Made by a program: the position numbers and the translations under genes. A model generated the notes under the pieces. The model searched no databases. It worked only from the letters and a program-made list of their open reading frames with translations, and was not told where the DNA came from. A stretch of 63,591 nucleotides of DNA, counting the filler, from Rhabdomonas costata (taxonomy: Eukaryota): the NCBI GenBank assembly GCA_019059605.1. It is 55 parts of 55 records of this genome, joined end to end, with 100 filler letters (N's around TTAATTAATTAA, not from the genome) between each part and the next. Parts side by side here need not be neighbours in the genome. Positions count along the whole stretch, not along the records: positions 2,319 to 3,377 come from JAHMHO010030856.1; positions 3,478 to 4,536 come from JAHMHO010030857.1; 53 more parts are not named here. One strand, given 5' to 3'. This document shows, piece by piece, positions 2,025 to 62,413 of the stretch. How positions within the stretch are numbered: position 1 is the first letter of the stretch; each line of letters begins with the position of its first letter.

Positions 2025-2794
2025 GCACTGCTCCGCTTTGCTTTCCTGTTTTACCAACTGCTGGGGACATCACACGGCACCATCCCCTGCGTAGTGTCAA
2101 AGGCGGGGCTGCTTCCCACTTCCTGACCCTAACCCGATCGTGGGGCACATCCACATCCACATCCACATCGTTTTTCTGTCCCTACCGTCATGCATCTGCC
2201 ACACCGCTTTGCGCACCGNNNNNNNNNNNNNNNNNNNNNNNNNNNNNNNNNNNNNNNNNNNNTTAATTAATTAANNNNNNNNNNNNNNNNNNNNNNNNNN
2301 NNNNNNNNNNNNNNNNNNATGAGCAAGTGTCAGAAAAAATAGAAAGGAAAGCAAGCACAGCCTCGGGCAAGGGAAAGGGCGAGGGTTGTTCGTATGTCTG
2401 CGTGAATGAACACAACGACAAGTGGACAAAATGAAGAGAAAAAAAGGGAGCAAAGCTTCAGGAGCGAAAGGAGGACAAGAAAGTGTGCAAACTGCACCCC
2501 CGGTGGATGACCCAAGACGAGGGAGGTGCTCGGAAACCTCACCTAGCCAAAAGCAAACCATTAAGGTGAGGAACAGTTATGCTGACGATGGGCCCCGCCG
2601 GGAACCAGCCCACAGTTCCCATCACAGGCCATGGAACATCTGCTATAACAAGCAGGACAGGGTGGAGGGGGTATTCCATGAAACCAATCAGACATGGCGT
2701 GTTTCTAACGAGCCGTCCCTGAGGAGAAAACAAGCGAGCAACTGCCGTGGCCCACGGCCCACCAACCTAAGAGGACACCAACCACACCCCATAC

Positions 2795-2928
2795 CGAGGC
2801 TGGGTACGAGACAAGCAAAGGTCAACAGAGGCCGAGGCCTCGACGGTGTCGTGAATAGTCTTCAGCGCCACCCAGCTTCCGCAGAACCGGCTCAGAGCCC
2901 AGCCAAGGATCCCGTAGTCCAAAAGCTC
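2795..2928 (-). CDS. Indolepyruvate:ferredoxin oxidoreductase (fused bacterial type), internal exon
   Basis: cag|ELLDYGILGWALSRFCGSWVALKTIHDTVEASASVDL...R|gtatgg matches the family pattern QEILDYGLHGWAMSRYSGLWVGMK..DxVESSASV. An upstream exon remnant ACGCAG|gt at 3366-3361 joins in phase 0 (TQ|ELLD) via intron 2929-3360. Confidence 0.8.
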
Positions 2929-3643
2929 CTGCGGACGAATTGGCACCCAAGACAGGTACTCCACACGGAGTTCACACAGTACAATGAAAAAATGGGGGAG
3001 GGGTACCGTCTATCTGGTTCAACAAAAAAAAGTAGCAAAACCCCGTCTGGTGTATCCTTTGCGGCCTTTTGAGTTGTTAAGCACTGAGCACAGTATACAA
3101 CTCACTGAAGCGATTCATTCGTAATACAACTGAGATGAAAGCTTCATTGGGTGACCAAACTAAGATATTCGCAATACGCAACGCAGCAGTTGAGCCCTTC
3201 CTGCCGCCAACCCACCCACTCGGCTGGGTGTTAAGGCTATTGTCACGCAGTAAAATCGGCACGAATCCATATCACGGTCAAACACGCTTCCCCTTCAAAG
3301 ATGGAGGCCAGCCAGTGCATTTAGCTGGACATAAGTTGCCTTGAGCGCCCCCCCACCAACCTGCGTCCACCCACACANNNNNNNNNNNNNNNNNNNNNNN
3401 NNNNNNNNNNNNNNNNNNNNNTTAATTAATTAANNNNNNNNNNNNNNNNNNNNNNNNNNNNNNNNNNNNNNNNNNNNGTGTTTGTGGTATTTATTAGTGT
3501 TTGCTTTTGACGGTGAGCAAAACATAAACATAGCAGCACCAGAACAAGAAGCTCGTTTTTCTCAGGCACGAGGTACGAGGAACACTCTACTTCTTTGCAA
3601 TTTCTTTTTGGCAGGTTCTCTTTCTGTTGAACTGCTCCGCGAG

Positions 3644-5795: not shown

Positions 5796-6854
5796 GAGTA
5801 GAGCTCGAAGTCGATCGCCAGCTCCACGAAGGTGATGTTGCGGTCCGCGCGGGCCTGCTCGGAGAGCCTCAGGTGGGGCCACTCCAGCTCGTACAGGTAG
5901 GCGTACAGGGCAGCGTAGTGGGTGTGCTTGCAGACGCTGTACAGCTTCCCAGGAAGGGGCAGGTCGGGCAGGTCCACCGCGAAGCGCTCGTGAGGGCCAG
6001 GAGGTCGCCAGCCCCAGGGATACCCCGAAGGCCGGGTGCTCGAAGACGACGAGGCAGCGGTGGCACGGGCGGAACTCGAGGAGGGCAGGACTGCATGCTC
6101 GCGATCATGGCGGGCCCGGAGGATGGACGCCATCATCTTCTGCACCGCAGCAGCAACTCGTACGCGTTCGGCCAGGTCGTCGTACAGCCCCGTCAGCATG
6201 ATGCCGCAGAGGGCGAGACACCGCGGCCAGGAGGAACGCCATGCAGCGACGACAGCAGGGTGTTCACGGCGAACGGGGTCCCACGCGGCGCAGTCCCACC
6301 ATAGGTGCTGCAGGTCCTCGGGCACCTCGTTGGCGCAATGGAGGCAGCTTGGAGAGGCATAGCGCCAGCATCGCGGCGTGCGTGAGGTTCGTCAGGTGTA
6401 ACCGGCTGAGCTGGGTGACCTCGGTGCCGTAAAACGCCGCGGCGCAGGGCTGCGCCGCAAGCAGCTGGCTCCGTGCAGCAAGCGGAAGAGGAGAGCGGCA
6501 ATGCGTCGAGCGGCATCAAGGGCATGACGAACCCGCTGGTCAACGTGGTCACCAGGGGTCGGAGCGGGAGTGAAGTTCAGGTGGGCCCCAAGGCAGCGGT
6601 CGGCCAGGACCTGAGGCACCGGCTCGCCGTTCAGCAAGAGCGCGTAGCTGTCCTTCGCCGCTCCCACCGCGAAGCAGGAGCTCTTCTTGACGTTCAGCTG
6701 CTGGCCGGTGAGCGAGACGTAGTCCACGGTGACCCGCCCAGCGTCTCGAACAGCTTCCCGGGTCCCCAGGGCGCTGGTGTCGTCGGCGTAGGCAGAGGGG
6801 ATGGCCTCGGTCTCGGCGGAGATGGCCCGGGCCCACACCGACACCAACAGGTTC
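5796..6854 (-). mobile_element. Degenerate non-LTR (LINE-like) retrotransposon ORF2 fragment: RT, thumb and CCHC zinc finger
   Basis: YADD at 6790-6779, then GQQLNVKKS and CLG (RT motifs 6-7). After a frameshift comes FYGTE (thumb), then CLHC..EDLQHLWWDC in another frame. High GC, no introns. Confidence 0.9.
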
Positions 6855-9481
6855 NNNNNNNNNNNNNNNNNNNNNNNNNNNNNNNNNNNNNNNNNNNNTT
6901 AATTAATTAANNNNNNNNNNNNNNNNNNNNNNNNNNNNNNNNNNNNNNNNNNNNGGGGTGGCTTCCGAGGTGCTCAGCCGCCACCGAGTGAGCGTGCACG
7001 TTGAGGGGCGATGGGATGGAGTTGGGGGAGCATTACACCAAACGGAAAGCGGAAAGAAAAGACGAAGGAGTTCGCGGGATGCGGTACGGGAAAGAGACTC
7101 CTTCAGTTCACAGTTCGGGGCTTCCAGGAAAAATACCCGCATCCAGAGCAGGAAAACAGACAAGCGCAATGGTACAGAACGAGACTTAGGGTTGAGCCAT
7201 CAAAAGCTAAAAAAAAAGTTCACTGCAATGGTGCGGGAAAATTCAAAAAAGGTAAAGAACTAATACTTGGTTACTTGGTTCAAGGGCAGCCCACTTCCCA
7301 ACAAGCAGCAAGGAACACCTTCGTGGCACGCATCCTCCAGACTGAAGAAGCTCCAATACTGAGGCATTACATGAGAACGGCGAGGGAGTTTGCAGAGAGA
7401 AAGAGAGAGAAGAGAGGGTGATGGATAGGGAGGGAGAGATTGAAGAGGAGGGAAGCTGTCTGCCATTCGTGTATGTCCGCCCAGCAATGGTACGGTAAAA
7501 GGTGGCACAGAATGGATGGAATGGGCCGGTGAATCCGAGCAGCAAGCTGTCAGCAGCAGACACTTTTTCTGGCAGTGCCCTGGAAGGATGAAACAGCCAA
7601 TGAAGGAGAGTAAAGAGGGCGGCGCTGGTCTGTGTCGGGCTGCTGTTGCCGCCGACATCTCTGCCGGGCAACGTGGGGAAGAGAGCCAAGCAAACAAGAA
7701 ACCAGGGAGGGTAAGTAACTGGGGAGGGGGAAATCGGGGAGCAAGGAGCGCATACGGCGCAGACTCTTTTTGGCATTGAACCCTGGAACCCTTGATAATG
7801 CAACAAACACATAGCCCAACCCATGATAGGCGCAGGAGCAAGAATGAATGTTGGAGAATCGCGTAAAACCTGACCTAACAACAAAAATGACCGGAGGGAC
7901 CTAAGGTTCCCACCTCACCCATGGAGGGCATGGGGAGGAGGGGCTGCTGCTGCTGCTGATGCTGCTGCGACTGCGCGATGCCACCCATTGCTCCCGGCGA
8001 CACCACCCACCCCNNNNNNNNNNNNNNNNNNNNNNNNNNNNNNNNNNNNNNNNNNNNTTAATTAATTAANNNNNNNNNNNNNNNNNNNNNNNNNNNNNNN
8101 NNNNNNNNNNNNNGTGGTTTTTGCTGATTGGCTTGTCCGCTGTACCCATCCGGGGGGACCTTCTTTTTCAATTAACATTTCTCGTTGCCACGCCTGTGGA
8201 CTTGTGACATGGAACGGCGCCGCAGTTCTGGTTGGGTTAGGGTTGCGGGTCCGGTGGTGTTGCAGAAAAAGTACATTCGAAAGATCCTGAGGAACCGAGG
8301 GCGTTGTGGTTATCACCAATACCGCAAGCAGCACATTTCGATATTCGATTCGGGGCGTCCATTTTGTCTGTGTGGGGGGTTCTTTCTGTGGATTGCGTTG
8401 TGGCGAGGGTCACCCACCCACGTGCAAATGTTCTCATTTCTCGGATGGGGGGGGGGGGTGCTCAGGCACGCGACGCAAGGACATTCGGGTCCGAGCGGGA
8501 TACGTTCCGCAGGTGAGCGTGGGATTTGTGGTGCCTTCGAAAAAGATAACCCTCCCTTTTCATCCCCGTTTCCTCAATGGCAACGAGGGCTTGAAGGACG
8601 GGGCGGGAAGCAGCTCAGGTCAAGACGACCAATGACTGGACCTTGTCTCTGACATTGGGCTTGTTCACTTGCCATTTTTATCCGAATCCTCAGGTTAGGA
8701 GTTTTATGTCTGCCCACTGCTGCACTGATGAGTATGCTTGGGTGTGCTTCTCGCAAAAGCAGACGACCAATGGGGGCATTGCCACACAAGTGCAAAAACG
8801 CTCTGAAGGGCTGGGGCAAAACCCTTACTCTCCAAAAAGGAAGTGTCTGCACGTCTGGCCTTCCGCCAGAATTGCAGCGGCTTTTGCGGAGTAAACTAGG
8901 CAACAAAGAAGAAATACTGGAGCGGAAGCGGAGTTGTGCCCCAGTGCAATTGCATCGCTGCCCTCACGACCTTCCACCAAGCTTTCCCTGATCCGACCCT
9001 ACCCTCACCCTTATCTTCCCTTCCCTTAAATTCTTGCGGTTGCCTCAGGAAGAGGTTCGTGCCTTTGAGACCCGTGGGAGCCGCTTCCGTGAGACCCAGC
9101 AGAAGCTGCAGCAGTGGGTCCCTGGGATGTCCCCAGAGCTGCTGGGTCTCACGGAAGCGGCTCCCACAACCCNNNNNNNNNNNNNNNNNNNNNNNNNNNN
9201 NNNNNNNNNNNNNNNNTTAATTAATTAANNNNNNNNNNNNNNNNNNNNNNNNNNNNNNNNNNNNNNNNNNNNGGGGGGGTGAGTTTTTCGGCCTCGGTCT
9301 TTCCTCCTACAGATCGTCGTTTCATCCCAAGCGGCCCACCACGACCCCGCCACACCGAAAGGGGTAAAAGCCAAACACGGGAGCAAAAAATCACATAGAG
9401 ATAGGAGAGGAGGGGCGAACAAAAAAGAGAGGTGCGGCTGTGGGTGTAATAATAGGCTATTTAAAAATGGGGGTGAATAAG

Positions 9482-9553
9482 CTCCGTCGCCGGGAGTCGA
9501 ACCCGGATTTCAGCCGTGAGAGGGCTGTGTTCTAACCGCTATACTACGACGGA
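9482..9553 (-). tRNA. tRNA-Glu(CTC)
   Basis: Full cloverleaf; anticodon arm CAGCC-CT-CTC-AC-GGCTG; T loop TTCGACT. Confidence 0.97.
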
Positions 9554-9661
9554 ACTCAGCAAAATCTTTTGAATAACGGGATGCCCCCCCCCAACTTAAT
9601 GAATCAACCCCTGACTTCAAAAGAATCCAAAGAATATTAAACGTATATAACTCCAGAAAGT

Positions 9662-9732
9662 TGAGGATGGACGGAATCGAACCGCCAGCGTTCGATTTGG
9701 AATCGAACATGTTGCCATTACACCACACCCCC
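9662..9732 (-). tRNA. tRNA-Trp(CCA)
   Basis: Cloverleaf; anticodon arm TTCGA-TT-CCA-AA-TCGAA (5-bp stem); T loop TTCGATT. Confidence 0.96.
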
Positions 9733-9810
9733 ATCGAAAAAACTGGAATTTCCAGAGAAAATGGACTTCTGTTTCAGCTGTATCCCAAACAAAAAAGCGT
9801 TGACTTTGTG

Positions 9811-9891
9811 GCTGAGGTGCCCGAGTGGTCAAGGGGGAGCACTCAAGATGCTCTAGTTTCGGCTGCGTGGGTTCAAATCCCACCTTCAGCA
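9811..9891 (+). tRNA. tRNA-Leu(CAA), intronless
   Basis: Anticodon arm GAGCA-CT-CAA-GA-TGCTC; long variable arm; T5 terminator at 9900-9904. Confidence 0.97.
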
Positions 9892-9955
9892 AGAACGGGT
9901 TTTTCGACACCAAAATTTTCAAAAGGAAGTTTAAAGGAAGTGAAATGGGAAAAGT

Positions 9956-10026
9956 TGCGTGAGCCGGGAATTGAACCCGGGGCGCACGCGTGGGAGGCGT
10001 ACATGTTGCCACTACACTACTCACGC
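9956..10026 (-). tRNA. tRNA-Gly(CCC)
   Basis: Acceptor GCGTGAG/CTCACGC; anticodon arm TACGC-CT-CCC-AC-GCGTG; T4 just downstream. Confidence 0.97.
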
Positions 10027-10109
10027 CATGTAAGTGAGGTGTCCCTGTTGTAATAGGGGTATCCTTTGCCCTTGTCGTTTCAATATATGTTTATCCAACT
10101 ATGTATCCT

Positions 10110-10191
10110 GTGAACGTAGCCAAGTGGTTAAGGCGTCAGACTGCTAATCTGATGGGCTCTGCCTGCGCCGGTTCGAATCCGGTCGTTCACG
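10110..10191 (+). tRNA. tRNA-Ser(GCT)
   Basis: Anticodon arm TCAGA-CT-GCT-AA-TCTGA; long variable arm; G73; T5 terminator at 10193-10197. Confidence 0.97.
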
Positions 10192-10431
10192 ATTTTTCAC
10201 TTCTGACGCCTTAACGCTTCTCGACTGCGACAAAAGCTACTGTCTTGGCTCCTTTCCAGAGTATGAGTGTCCACATACTAAAAGTCCGCCCAAGGTAAAC
10301 TTTGGGACAACCTCCGCCCAACCCCACCCACNNNNNNNNNNNNNNNNNNNNNNNNNNNNNNNNNNNNNNNNNNNNTTAATTAATTAANNNNNNNNNNNNN
10401 NNNNNNNNNNNNNNNNNNNNNNNNNNNNNNN

Positions 10432-26958: not shown

Positions 26959-27508
26959 TCATGCCCGATAGCCACCCCTTTTTGCAGGAGGCTTGGGGGC
27001 CGCTTTGGCTTTTGCAGCCTTTGGTTTAGGCTTGGGTTCCGAAACCAGGGGGCCGCCGATACCTTCGCGACCTCGCAGCTTAACCTGCAGAACCTTTTCC
27101 ATTTTAGTCAGCACTTTCTCGTTGTAGATAGCTCGCCCAGCTTCGAATTCCGCAACCACGCCCTTAGGTTCATTAATGAGCTGAAAGAAATGCAAATGAC
27201 AGATGAAGAACGGCCCAACCTCGCTGATCCTTGCCGTACGCCACAAAGCCGGGCAGCGTACCCGTGCAAGATCCTCTTGTTTAAGCCCTCTTGCGTTGCG
27301 ACCTTGCATGATGGCCATTTTCACTTCGTTTGACACCGTTCTGTCTGTGATGGAAACCAAGTGGAAAATGACGCGAAATGGAACATGAACCGAAAGTCCC
27401 AGAAAAAGCACCCAAAAGACAACGCACGTTTCAGCTGATCCGTCTCCTCATCAAGTTTCCGAGCGCTTGGGCCCACGGTGGGAAAATGCTTGTTCTGCCC
27501 AGCAGCAA
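26959..27508 (-). CDS. MBF1: Multiprotein bridging factor 1, 3' part (3 exons)
   Basis: Exons 27508-27428, 27344-27262 and 27180-26959 (TGA); GT-AG introns of 83 and 81 nt. AAGQNK..ARKLDEETDQLKHRTVSNEVKMAIMQGRNARGLKQEDLAR|LINEPKGVVAEFEAGRAIYNEKVLTKMEKVLQVKLRG. Confidence 0.95.
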
Positions 27509-39385: not shown

Positions 39386-39496
39386 GCCTTTAATATTCAC
39401 GAAAAAAGATTAGCTAACTGCACACTATTTATAATCTGTTTCATACATTATAAATAGTGTGCAGTTAGCTAATCTTTTTTGGTGAATATTAAAGGC
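39386..39496. repeat. 50-bp inverted repeat (1 mismatch) at contig start
   Basis: 39386-39435 pairs with 39447-39496; 11-nt loop; preceded by a G/T-only tag. Confidence 0.9.
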
Positions 39497-47553: not shown

Positions 47554-48381
47554 ATCCGGCAGAAGTGGAGCGTGCTCAACATATCCATGGTGCACCGCCT
47601 CGGGCTTGTTCCGATTGGTGTGTCTGCACGGTGCCCTGTTCCTCTCCATAACACCGTCTGTTCTACCCCACGTTAACCCCTGCCAAGCTTCGCCGAACTT
47701 CAGCCCTTGCAGCGACCATGATCTTGGGCTTCTGGGGGTTATTATCTTCTCGAAATTGTGTGGAAATCGCCTCACACAGCACCATGCTGCTGTGGTCCAG
47801 CATACTACACAGCTTGTCGCCAGGAGACCGTAATGGTTCGGAAAGTGTTGACCCTAGATCCCTTGTAAAGGTTGTTGTCTACGTTTGCCGACCTTCTGTT
47901 TGAATGCCTCAGTCAATGGTGAGGTTTCGGGTTAGGGTTTGGATTCGGACTAGAGCGTAAGGCAAAAATGACGCAGTACGTGGCGAAAAAATTACTCACA
48001 GTATATTTCCGCCATGAGCGCCTGGGAAACTGCCCAACGTCTGCCCATTTTATTGGACCCATAGTCTGTTCCCCACCTGCCACCACGTAGAGCGGAGAGC
48101 GCAGTCCTTTCCCAATATCTGTTCCAAGTCAAAGAAGATGTGACGCCGGATGTTTTTTTTCGTCGTTTCTTTTTGGTTTTCGAGGTCATCATACCCGGCT
48201 TGGGAGCATTGGTGTGCTCGGAGCGGTCAGGCGCGAGTTTTTTAGTGCCCTGCAAAAGGAATGTGTCCGTTCGTTTAATGGGTACGGGTTGAAAGGTGAG
48301 GCCAGCGTTATTGTGGTGGTGAGCTCAGCACACCGTGCTGACGCCCTGCAGGCCAGCGCCTACGGCATTGAAAAAATCAAG
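47554..48381 (+). CDS. moaE: Molybdopterin synthase catalytic subunit (MoaE/MOCS2B), 2 exons
   Basis: Exons 47554-47617 and 48296-48381: IRQKWSVLNISMVHRLGLVPIG|EASVIVVVSSAHRADALQASAYGIEKIK. The next donor is GC (48382). Confidence 0.93.
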
Positions 48382-49795
48382 GCATACCCCACTTCTCTCT
48401 TCCTCACCTGCTATGTGTTGCGGGGATTTTCTTTTAAATTAACTGTATCAGAAACGTGCCTTTTTGTGCAATCGATTTCCAAGGAACGTACGAAGCCGAG
48501 CTTTAAATTCTTTTCATTAAAGCTGCCCATCGTAAAANNNNNNNNNNNNNNNNNNNNNNNNNNNNNNNNNNNNNNNNNNNNTTAATTAATTAANNNNNNN
48601 NNNNNNNNNNNNNNNNNNNNNNNNNNNNNNNNNNNNNCGACCAGAAATATGTTGGAACGAAGTTGAGAAAGGTGGGGTGGCGACGGATGGCTGAAGGAGG
48701 ATTGAGAACAGAACCTTTGGTATGTTGGGGTTATTTTATTGGGAGGGATGAATACGTGCATGTGCGCAGGCCGCTCTATGCGACGTAGCTGCGGGGTGGT
48801 TTTCCGAGCCCTGCGTGGTGTGTGACAAGCGTGCCGCTGTGGTGGGCGCCAACCCCGCTGCGGAGGCGATGTTTGGGTACACTGTTGCGGAGGTGCCCTG
48901 CAACTCACTGTGCTCTTCTCCGCTGTGATGAGGTTGACGAATTTTTTATGGGGTCGCGTTCAGAGCCAGGCGATCTGGTCTTCACCAAATGGATTAGCAT
49001 CAAATGGCGGAATCCAGGCAGTTTATCGGCAAAAAAATATTTTGAAAATTCCCGGGGGGACGGGCTGTCTCGCCTTTTTGCGCAAACATCGCCACCTAAC
49101 CCCCTGCAAAATTCCACAAAATACTTTTGCCCCCCCTCCCATTGGACGAATGTCATTTTCGGCCTTAAGCCTCAAATGCCTGCCCTCTCATACCTCATAC
49201 GCACACCTCCTCTAAAAACACCTTTGAATGCATCCATACAGATTTCCACCTGGGATGTTCACCGGCAAGCCGTGTGCTGTAATAATGGCCGATTCCTGTC
49301 TGGGAGTGACATACTTGGATGGGCTGCGGGGGTCACAGCTCCGGCAGGGCAGCACCCTGCAGCGGATCCTTCCCGAGCACTTCCTGGCGCTGCAGGAGCA
49401 CTGCGCTGCCCGAGTAGTGGCGGCTGCTCGGTTGGTGGATTCCTCTGCCCCTGGCGAAGGCACCCCGTCGCGCCCCGTGAGCCCATTCAGCGGCGGCGGC
49501 ACAAGCAGTGCCAGGGGTGTGGTGGTCAAGGGCCCCGTTAAGCACCTTCTGTGGTGCACCACCGTATGTCGGGGGGCCTCTTGGATTTTGAAGTCGAATT
49601 TAGGCCAAAATGGGACCATGAAAAAACATGCCTTGGCGCAGACCTGAGCCTGGAGACCGAATATCCAACACACCCCACCAAACTCTCCTAACACANNNNN
49701 NNNNNNNNNNNNNNNNNNNNNNNNNNNNNNNNNNNNNNNTTAATTAATTAANNNNNNNNNNNNNNNNNNNNNNNNNNNNNNNNNNNNNNNNNNNN

Positions 49796-61375: not shown

Positions 61376-62413
61376 GGTTGGTTGAGCCGTGGGTGCCGCA
61401 GGTTTCACTCACTCGTTCCGAGAAGACGGTGATGAACGTGGCGGTTGACCTGCCGAGTCGGACGACGGACGCAGAGTTGGAACCAAGGACTCTGGAAGTG
61501 TCGTTTAAGACAAACCTTCTGGAGGTGCAGCCTACACTAGTCAAGGTTTTATACGAGTTGAGGGATCTCGCAATCAGGTTGAAGGTGCCTCAAAACGGGT
61601 GGAAGAACGGAGAGGATGCAGTCGAGCATCCTGGTTGGGCGAGACGAAACCATTTTAGCGGGAGAGTCGTCGAGGAGACACCTCTTTGTACCATCAGGCC
61701 TGCGGATTCGTCCGCTCTTGCCTCAGTTGTACTCGCCAAGGAGTCAGTCGAGCTTGAGAAGACCAGCGTCTGTGAACGCTCAGTTCTTCCGCAGCGAGTG
61801 GTACGCAGTTAAAGACGGAAGGAGCAGGTGAGTGCAAGTGAGCACTGTAAGGTTTCCCCTGTGGTGTGGTGTGGGAAAAGAGGGGAGCCCCATTAAGAAA
61901 GCTGTTCCTGACGAATGGGGCTCATTGTTGACGTTTGGTACCGAGAGTTAAAAAGAGTGTAGTGCATCAAAGAGGAAGGCCATTCGTGACCAAGGACGGA
62001 TGTCGTACGGACCCGACTTTGTGAAGAGAGCGCAAAGTGGAAGTGGAGAGTCGTAGGTCGAAGAGCTTAGATTGGAGTTTAGCAGGGGAGCAGTGCGGAT
62101 CCGAGGGGGGCGAAAAGACGTGTTGAGAGCAGACCCTTTGTTTGCCCCTTTGTTCACCTTGCCATTTGAAAAGATGGACCCAGAGTGGGACGGGTTCTTG
62201 GAGAACTTGAAGGACCCGCGTCCTCTTCAACCCTTGCTTTTCTTGCCAATGGTTGTGGAACAGAAGCAGGTGAGAGCGCTCCTGGATTCTGGGGCGTCAG
62301 ACTCTTTTGCAAGTTTGTATGTGGTGAGGGAGTTGGGGTTACAGAAGTTTAATTTGAAGCAACCTCTGACGGTAAGAGTGGCCAATGGTGAAAAGCTGGC
62401 TGTGACAAATTAA
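61376..62413 (+). mobile_element. Ty3/Gypsy-like gag-pol fragment with retropepsin protease
   Basis: VRALLDSGASDSFAS..VVRELGL....LKQPLTVRVANGE (about 62270-62400) is a typical LTR-retrotransposon aspartyl protease. The upstream region is broken by stops and frameshifts. Confidence 0.85.

Follow-up and report, generated by a model that had tools for sequence, protein, structure and literature searches.

Organization of the Window

The window, by which we mean the whole 63,591-nt stretch of DNA analyzed here, consists of 55 separate contigs of 1050-1059 bp each with linkers of the form N...TTAATTAATTAA...N between them. Sequence outside positions 2319-3377 is therefore physically unconnected to the block that forms the subject of this study, and any conclusion drawn across a linker is invalid. 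The contig at 2319-3377 (1059 bp, 52.6% GC) contains a minus-strand reading frame at 2767-3009 that reads ...VPIRPQELLDYGILGWALSRFCGSWVALKTIHDTVEASASVDLCLSRTQPRYG...*, within which lies a putative internal exon bordered by candidate splice sites and by flanks that are probably intronic (Table 1). The exon peptide corresponds approximately to residues 178-221 of the 1160-amino acid bacterial long indolepyruvate:ferredoxin oxidoreductases (IORs), so the visible share of the gene is 44 of ~1160 codons, or ~4% of the protein. A tblastn search of the whole window finds no second IOR piece in the other 54 contigs. The initial annotation had placed both an encoded IOR peptide and a 134-nt exon with AG and GT borders in this region, and both are present on the minus strand. 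Its peptide requires a correction at one end, where 44 residues are indeed coding and the leading Gln corresponds to the CAG triplet in which the acceptor AG is located, and so lies outside the exon.

Table 1. Features of the IOR contig and of two intron-containing genes elsewhere in the window (a slash marks the exon border)
Feature	Position	Strand	Description
Putative internal exon, 134 nt	2795-2928	minus	Starts in phase 0; encodes ELLDYGILGWALSRFCGSWVALKTIHDTVEASASVDLCLSRTQP plus 2 nt (44 residues)
Putative 3' splice site	2929-2955	minus	AG at 2930-2929, context tccgcag/GAG; moderately pyrimidine-rich stretch before it
Putative 5' splice site GTATGG	2789-2794	minus	GT at 2794-2793, context CTCG/GTATGG
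Upstream flank	2929-3377	minus	At least 449 nt to contig end; probably intron; no IOR-like coding
Downstream flank	2319-2794	minus	At least 476 nt to contig end; probably intron; no IOR-like coding
MBF1-type transcription co-factor gene	26962-27447	minus	Split by 81- and 83-nt GT-AG introns
MoaE (molybdopterin synthase) exons	~47554-47617, 48296-48384	plus	678-nt GT-AG intron; exons of ~64 and 89 nt

Family Identity of the Exon Peptide

Only two models in NCBIfam match the peptide, NF009588 (E = 8.3e-14, 50.4 bits) and NF009589 (E = 2.3e-11, 42.2 bits), with residues 23-70 of the reading frame placed on profile positions 183-230 and the 44 exon residues aligned free of gaps to profile positions ~188-230. 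The curated full-length cut-offs of these models (952 and 816 bits, respectively) are unreachable by construction, as the peptide spans 48 of 1196 profile positions on a 1-kb contig. When five bacterial IORs are compared with the whole window by tblastn, all five match at 2800/2812-2943 with E values of 3e-14 to 3e-11, and the six remaining rows of the same search have E values of 0.28-9.8. No Pfam family matches the peptide at E values up to 10, as expected, since in a bacterial long IOR the region covered by Pfam models is confined to residues 452-1139.

Searches of large protein collections return the same family. A word-indexed search of 5.8 billion proteins yields 75 candidates, 54 of which pass an E value of 0.001; these are 942-1181 amino acids long and at most 63% identical to the exon peptide, PF01558 is present in all of them, usually alongside PF20169 and/or PF02775, and wherever a row names its source the protein is called IOR. 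Among 1.84 billion representatives searched exhaustively, 339 proteins have E values of 0.001 or below, and the best 150 of these 339 are 42-69% identical. Short proteins among the top matches were considered as possible eukaryotic exons, and four of the seven inspected (five of the best 10 and two others) proved to be frameshifted translations, these four lying on long contigs as out-of-frame translations of high-GC bacterial genes. By sequence similarity the peptide is a member of the long single-chain IOR family, chance similarity being excluded by the E values of 8.3e-14 and 3e-14. The assignment to the fused single-chain IOR family made in the initial annotation thus stands, this family being both the best and the only one matched and IOR being what the peptide search returned.

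Conservation of the Exon Sequence

The exon was compared with an ungapped alignment of 136 unique homologues; as these had been collected for their resemblance to the exon peptide itself, the set favors it. At 43 of the 44 positions the exon residue is seen in the family at the same column. The nine columns between 6 and 42 that are at least 90% conserved are all kept, as are Arg-46 and Pro-49, and the local signature over the equivalent of residues 178-221 reads Asp, Gly, Gly, Ala, Ser-Arg, Gly, Trp, and Lys, followed by Arg. The 12 mismatches to the consensus fall at variable columns, with a mean conservation of 0.52 compared with 0.76 at the matches, and only one of 20,000 permutations places the mismatches as extremely (p = 5e-5). 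In leave-one-out profile scoring the exon reaches 120.1 compared with a family median of 113.9, which is above the score of 71% of the 136 members, whereas none of 2000 simulations of equally large drift without constraint attains this value (maximum 71.8). The block contains neither a stop codon nor a frameshift. With its conserved positions kept and its differences confined to variable positions, the exon represents part of a genuine IOR-family gene in intact rather than decayed form. Either constraint acts on it, or its derivation from a working gene was recent.

An intact pattern is also expected of a recently inserted fragment, which raises an alternative in which the block is an orphan relic, either a fragment of a bacterial IOR gene inserted into the genome or the last recognizable exon of a dead gene, with the bordering AG and GT coincidental or vestigial. 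The absence of stops and frameshifts, the nine kept columns, the score above the family median, and the failure of simulated drift to reach it all argue against such a relic. An insertion with so intact a sequence would have to be very recent, and this is opposed by the nearest known DNA being only 78% identical over 82 nt.

Exon Boundaries and Flanking Sequence

The reading frame of the bacterial long IORs runs uninterrupted through this region, with the pattern DDH..ESST..H.SE...P.LNPAGVQ adjoining the block upstream and ..P.DF..P.GG..IR adjoining it downstream. In the window the AG and the GT stand where the coding similarity ends on both sides, as in a spliceosomal exon. The Ile, Arg, and Pro residues encoded just upstream of the AG have family frequencies of 0, 0.016, and 0, respectively (n = 123-124), in columns dominated by Ala, Gly, and Val. 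At the other end the similarity extends to SRTQ, compared with DRTQ in some bacterial members, two codons ahead of the GT, and an in-frame stop is reached 10 codons beyond the putative 5' splice site. An alternative donor, GTGTG, begins at position 2787 and would give an exon at 2788-2928.

The contig was cut into 59 stop-to-stop pieces of at least 6 amino acids, which were scored with a profile of 60 IOR N termini with filters off. The exon piece reaches 66.8 bits, the scores listed for 26 others run from -2.1 to -5.3 bits, and none of the 58 non-exon pieces rises above zero. Comparison of the 36 pieces of at least 20 amino acids with NCBIfam and Pfam gives a significant match for the exon and none for the other 35, the best non-exon matches having E values of 0.0025-0.67, under the curated cut-offs. 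No neighboring IOR exon is found in any frame within the 449 nt upstream or the 476 nt downstream. An in-phase upstream exon remnant reaching to 3366 had been proposed in the initial annotation, and it finds no support from the profile, NCBIfam, or Pfam. The piece at 3298-3375 is missing among the listed IOR-profile scores and has no NCBIfam or Pfam match at E values up to 1. Two hints of such a remnant were considered and rejected, VPIRPQ compared with IPILNPAGVQ in the family and TQVGGGALK compared with TSKHGGVLAL; both are at or below noise, and they need insertions or deletions found in none of the 123-124 sequences at those columns, a count restricted to ungapped alignments.

The plus strand, antisense to the exon, holds a 220-codon stop-free frame at 2410-3069 with no family match. 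T makes up only 16% of this strand, which leaves few stop codons in it, and the frame is most likely a composition artifact.

A single block whose two flanks, of at least 449 and 476 nt, contain nothing resembling IOR is what an orphan relic would leave, and plain AG and GT dinucleotides are each common, at ~0.06 per base. Against this, both ends of the similarity coincide exactly with extended splice-like signals. The joint chance of a YAG no more than 7 nt from where the similarity starts and a GTRYG no more than 24 nt from where it stops is ~0.02, a figure that depends on a donor pattern defined post hoc from three host introns. Small isolated exons separated by long introns are, moreover, normal in this host, as described below. 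Taken with the conserved sequence of the block, these observations lead us to regard the relic as unlikely, although it is the alternative to which we give the most weight.

Host Context of the Contig

Most contigs in the window lack long reading frames with family matches and look eukaryotic. Genes other than IOR have GT-AG introns of 81-678 nt with small exons, as seen in the MBF1-type and MoaE genes (Table 1). The match of the first MoaE exon is weak (E = 0.01) but collinear with the second. After the second MoaE exon the sequence reads AAG/GCATAC, so a GC donor is possible there. The sole database relative found for the MBF1-type protein is 47% identical, so nothing closely related to the host is contained in that collection.

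The IOR contig resembles these contigs in several respects. Its trinucleotide composition is the second closest of the 55 to the mean of the window, and its observed/expected ratios for CpG and TpA are 0.66 and 0.63 compared with window medians of 0.75 and 0.58, respectively. The CpG median of 0.75 speaks against a vertebrate host. The downstream flank has 13% A and 34% T on the sense strand, a T-A skew of 0.45, and the excess of T over A on this strand is 0.16 in the upstream flank, the two values lying within the 0.16-0.64 range of three host introns. These three introns begin with GTGTG, GTACG, and GTGCG, compared with GTATG at the IOR donor, and the acceptor ccgcag/ is common to the host MoaE exon and the IOR exon. 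No repeats are shared between the IOR contig and the other contigs, and neither of two spliced-leader motifs, one dinoflagellate and one euglenid, has a match. Tandem repeats give no clue to the host. The IOR contig fits host DNA.

Several other features of the window are recorded here in their own right. Five tRNA genes (Glu-CTC, Trp-CCA, Leu-CAA, Gly-CCC, and Ser-GCT) lie on alternating strands within 712 bp at 9481-10192, and the Rfam search returns only these and sub-threshold palindromic matches resembling microRNAs. Among the latter, mir-556 is matched at 39392-39490 on both strands with 52.5 and 50.5 bits compared with a gathering score of 84, and these matches are presumed to be a palindromic or simple-sequence artifact. 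Relics of both gag-protease elements and LINEs are present. The plus strand at 62057-62410, in a contig of 37.8% GC, encodes a fragment of a retroviral-type aspartyl protease (PF13650, E = 1e-6) and represents an LTR-retroelement relic. The contig at 5796-6854 (67% GC, composition rank 54 of 55) carries on its minus strand at 5798-6853 a non-LTR retrotransposon relic, the C-terminal part of an EN/RT ORF2, which is 60-63% identical in three matches to metagenome proteins of 1269-1755 amino acids with PF03372 and PF00078. The contig at 10432-11489 is an outlier at 18.8% GC (composition rank 55 of 55), with one frame open across its entire length that encodes a fragment of an insulin-degrading-enzyme/pitrilysin-like M16 peptidase (PF05193, E = 5.4e-12; PDB code 1q2l_A, E = 5.4e-11), and another, AT-rich organism is its probable source.

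Because such compositional outliers occur in the window, the assembly is not demonstrably pure, and the exon might be a genuine intron-bearing IOR exon of another eukaryote, whether prey, symbiont, or contaminant. The 18.8% and 67% GC contigs favor this explanation, as does the placement of the exon on a 1-kb contig that is linked to nothing else. It is opposed by the position of the IOR contig as the second most typical of the 55 in trinucleotide composition and by the dinucleotide biases, donor form, and intron strand skew that the IOR, MoaE, and MBF1 contigs have in common. We consider an origin in another eukaryote improbable.

Nearest Relatives and Ancestry

All relatives found in the protein, metagenome, and prokaryote genome searches are bacterial and at most 69% identical, the identity of the exon peptide to bacterial members being 56-69%. 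In the prokaryote genome scan (63 loci, at most 68% identical) the nearest are Pseudomonadota metagenome-assembled genomes of marine and soil origin at 63-68%, assigned to Hyphomicrobiales, Gammaproteobacteria, Acidiferrobacteraceae, and Rhodobacterales, and Acidimicrobiia, Myxococcales, and Actinokineospora lie further off at 37-50%. The 56 loci of the metagenome scan do not exceed 65% identity in matches of at least 40 residues. The 78% over 82 nt noted above is the best identity at the nucleotide level, and an exact 27-mer of the exon has no match in metagenome contigs. These values speak against an origin of the DNA in a known bacterium. No close eukaryotic orthologue is found in any of the protein searches (5.8 billion proteins and 1.84 billion representatives), which is a point in favor of the orphan relic. 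The GC content at third codon positions is 0.73 compared with a bacterial median of 0.66 (n = 117), a difference that is not discriminating and has no bearing on residence time.

These relatives fit a bacterial ancestry of the gene, which would most likely be proteobacterial, and the 44 residues are too few to resolve the donor. With the nearest relatives in the Alpha- and Gammaproteobacteria, lateral transfer is possible, as is, less likely, retention from the mitochondrial ancestor.

The abundance of bacterial IOR genes in environmental DNA, together with an assembly so fragmented that all contigs are ~1 kb, leads to a further alternative in which a bacterial read has been falsely joined to host DNA or the match has arisen by chance. 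The latter is excluded by the E values given above. In a chimera, reads would have to have been wrongly joined twice at a distance of 134 nt, both times at a splice-like signal, and the flanking frames lack a significant match to any bacterial family. The missing 27-mer in metagenome contigs also speaks against it, and we judge this the least credible of the alternatives, with very little probability.

Comparison with Known Oxidoreductases

The long single-chain IORs of Pseudomonadota and Actinomycetota (NF009588/NF009589) are proteins of ~1160 amino acids with PF02775, PF01558, and PF20169, and every position that is strongly conserved in them is kept in the exon peptide. They differ from the present case in gene structure, as the bacterial gene is one uninterrupted frame, whereas here the block is cut at an AG and a GT inside noncoding DNA of eukaryotic appearance. 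The bacterial members contain the PF02775 thiamine-diphosphate domain and invariant Cys motifs, which are expected to serve Fe-S clusters, at residues 432-680; tblastn finds nothing similar to this region in the contig or the window. The C-terminal domain resembling POR gamma (PF01558) and DUF6537 (PF20169), both present in the bacterial reference, are likewise missing from all 55 contigs.

Little biochemistry on the long IOR family exists to our knowledge, and no solved structure related to its N-terminal part is detectable by sequence. For a bacterial member there is an AlphaFold model of mediocre quality (mean pLDDT of 65.1, and 74-81 over residues 161-200), in which the equivalent of the exon comprises a helix (residues 176-193), a strand (residues 197-202), a short helix, and a second strand (residues 209-213). 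The whole model resembles PFOR, OGOR, OorA, and oxalate oxidoreductase (7plm_A, E = 6.5e-14; target TM-scores of 0.64 for 8ys5_A, 0.59 for 5c4i_A, and 0.46 for 6n2n_A), a likeness that extends to the general OFOR fold only. From the model as a whole we tentatively assign the exon to an N-terminal alpha-like thiamine-diphosphate domain.

The two-subunit IorAB of archaea and anaerobic bacteria shares the OFOR superfamily and the nominal substrate class with the long IOR. IorAB is of the Pyrococcus/Methanobacterium type (TIGR03336/TIGR03334). Its subunits are separate proteins, with a ferredoxin domain in IorA. It is unlike the present sequence, as no IorA or IorB model in NCBIfam matches the peptide at E values up to 10.

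A review (PMC13768988) names IOR among the OFOR families and describes PFORs in eukaryotes as enzymes with one subunit that occur in selected protists. With the PFO/PNO of anaerobic protists, some algae, and amoebae, there is already an example of eukaryotic nuclei containing OFOR genes of bacterial type (PMC13768988). They constitute a different OFOR family from the long IOR, and the distinction from PFO/PNO drawn in the initial annotation is borne out, no PFOR model matching the peptide in Pfam (E up to 10) or NCBIfam. According to PMC10411912, the long IOR is the commonest OFOR of alphaproteobacteria, and anoxia-adapted eukaryotes predominantly have PFOR and OGOR. Full-text literature searches turn up no report of a eukaryotic long IOR, and annotation tables of protist genomes could list one.

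Interpretation

The reading that we consider probable, if well short of certain, is that positions 2795-2928 are an internal exon of a nuclear, intron-split, bacterium-derived gene of the long IOR family in an intron-rich eukaryote. The initial annotation had suggested a laterally acquired, intronized gene. This is upheld insofar as the relatives are bacterial, the block is cut at splice-like signals, the flanks resemble host introns, and the majority of the DNA is that of an intron-rich eukaryote; it is weakened by there being only one exon seen and no other IOR piece in the window.

The long IORs are an OFOR-superfamily family with an alpha-like thiamine-diphosphate domain at the N terminus. 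Under the reading as an internal exon, the exon would contribute a helix-strand-helix-strand segment to this domain, and other contigs would carry the remaining ~1100 codons. These codons would presumably exist and the gene be spliced and translated, and the product may oxidatively decarboxylate 2-oxoacids, forming acyl-CoA and reducing ferredoxin, as the name of the family suggests. Because the contig carries no cofactor or cluster motif, the enzyme function in the host, given in the initial annotation as ferredoxin-linked 2-oxoacid catabolism, is predicted from family membership only.

One 44-codon exon on a 1-kb contig constitutes a lead rather than an established gene. That an intron-rich eukaryote keeps, under selection, a complete nuclear gene for a long single-chain IOR, a family that we otherwise find described only in bacteria, is a more tentative proposition, which we hold to be possible but somewhat doubtful. 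If it is true, this would be a third kind of ferredoxin-linked 2-oxoacid oxidoreductase in eukaryotes, beside PFO/PNO and OGOR, with an organelle as the probable site of action of the long IOR and aromatic or branched-chain 2-oxoacids as its probable substrates. Oxygen-sensitive 2-oxoacid:ferredoxin oxidoreductases of bacterial type are markers in eukaryotes of the gain of anaerobic or unusual amino acid metabolism by protists. Genes of this superfamily with bacterial origin are already known in eukaryotic nuclei, and a eukaryotic long IOR would add to them. The discussion has so far centered on PFO/PNO and OGOR, and a working eukaryotic long IOR would widen this set and would provide a clean case of a transferred gene acquiring the introns of its host.
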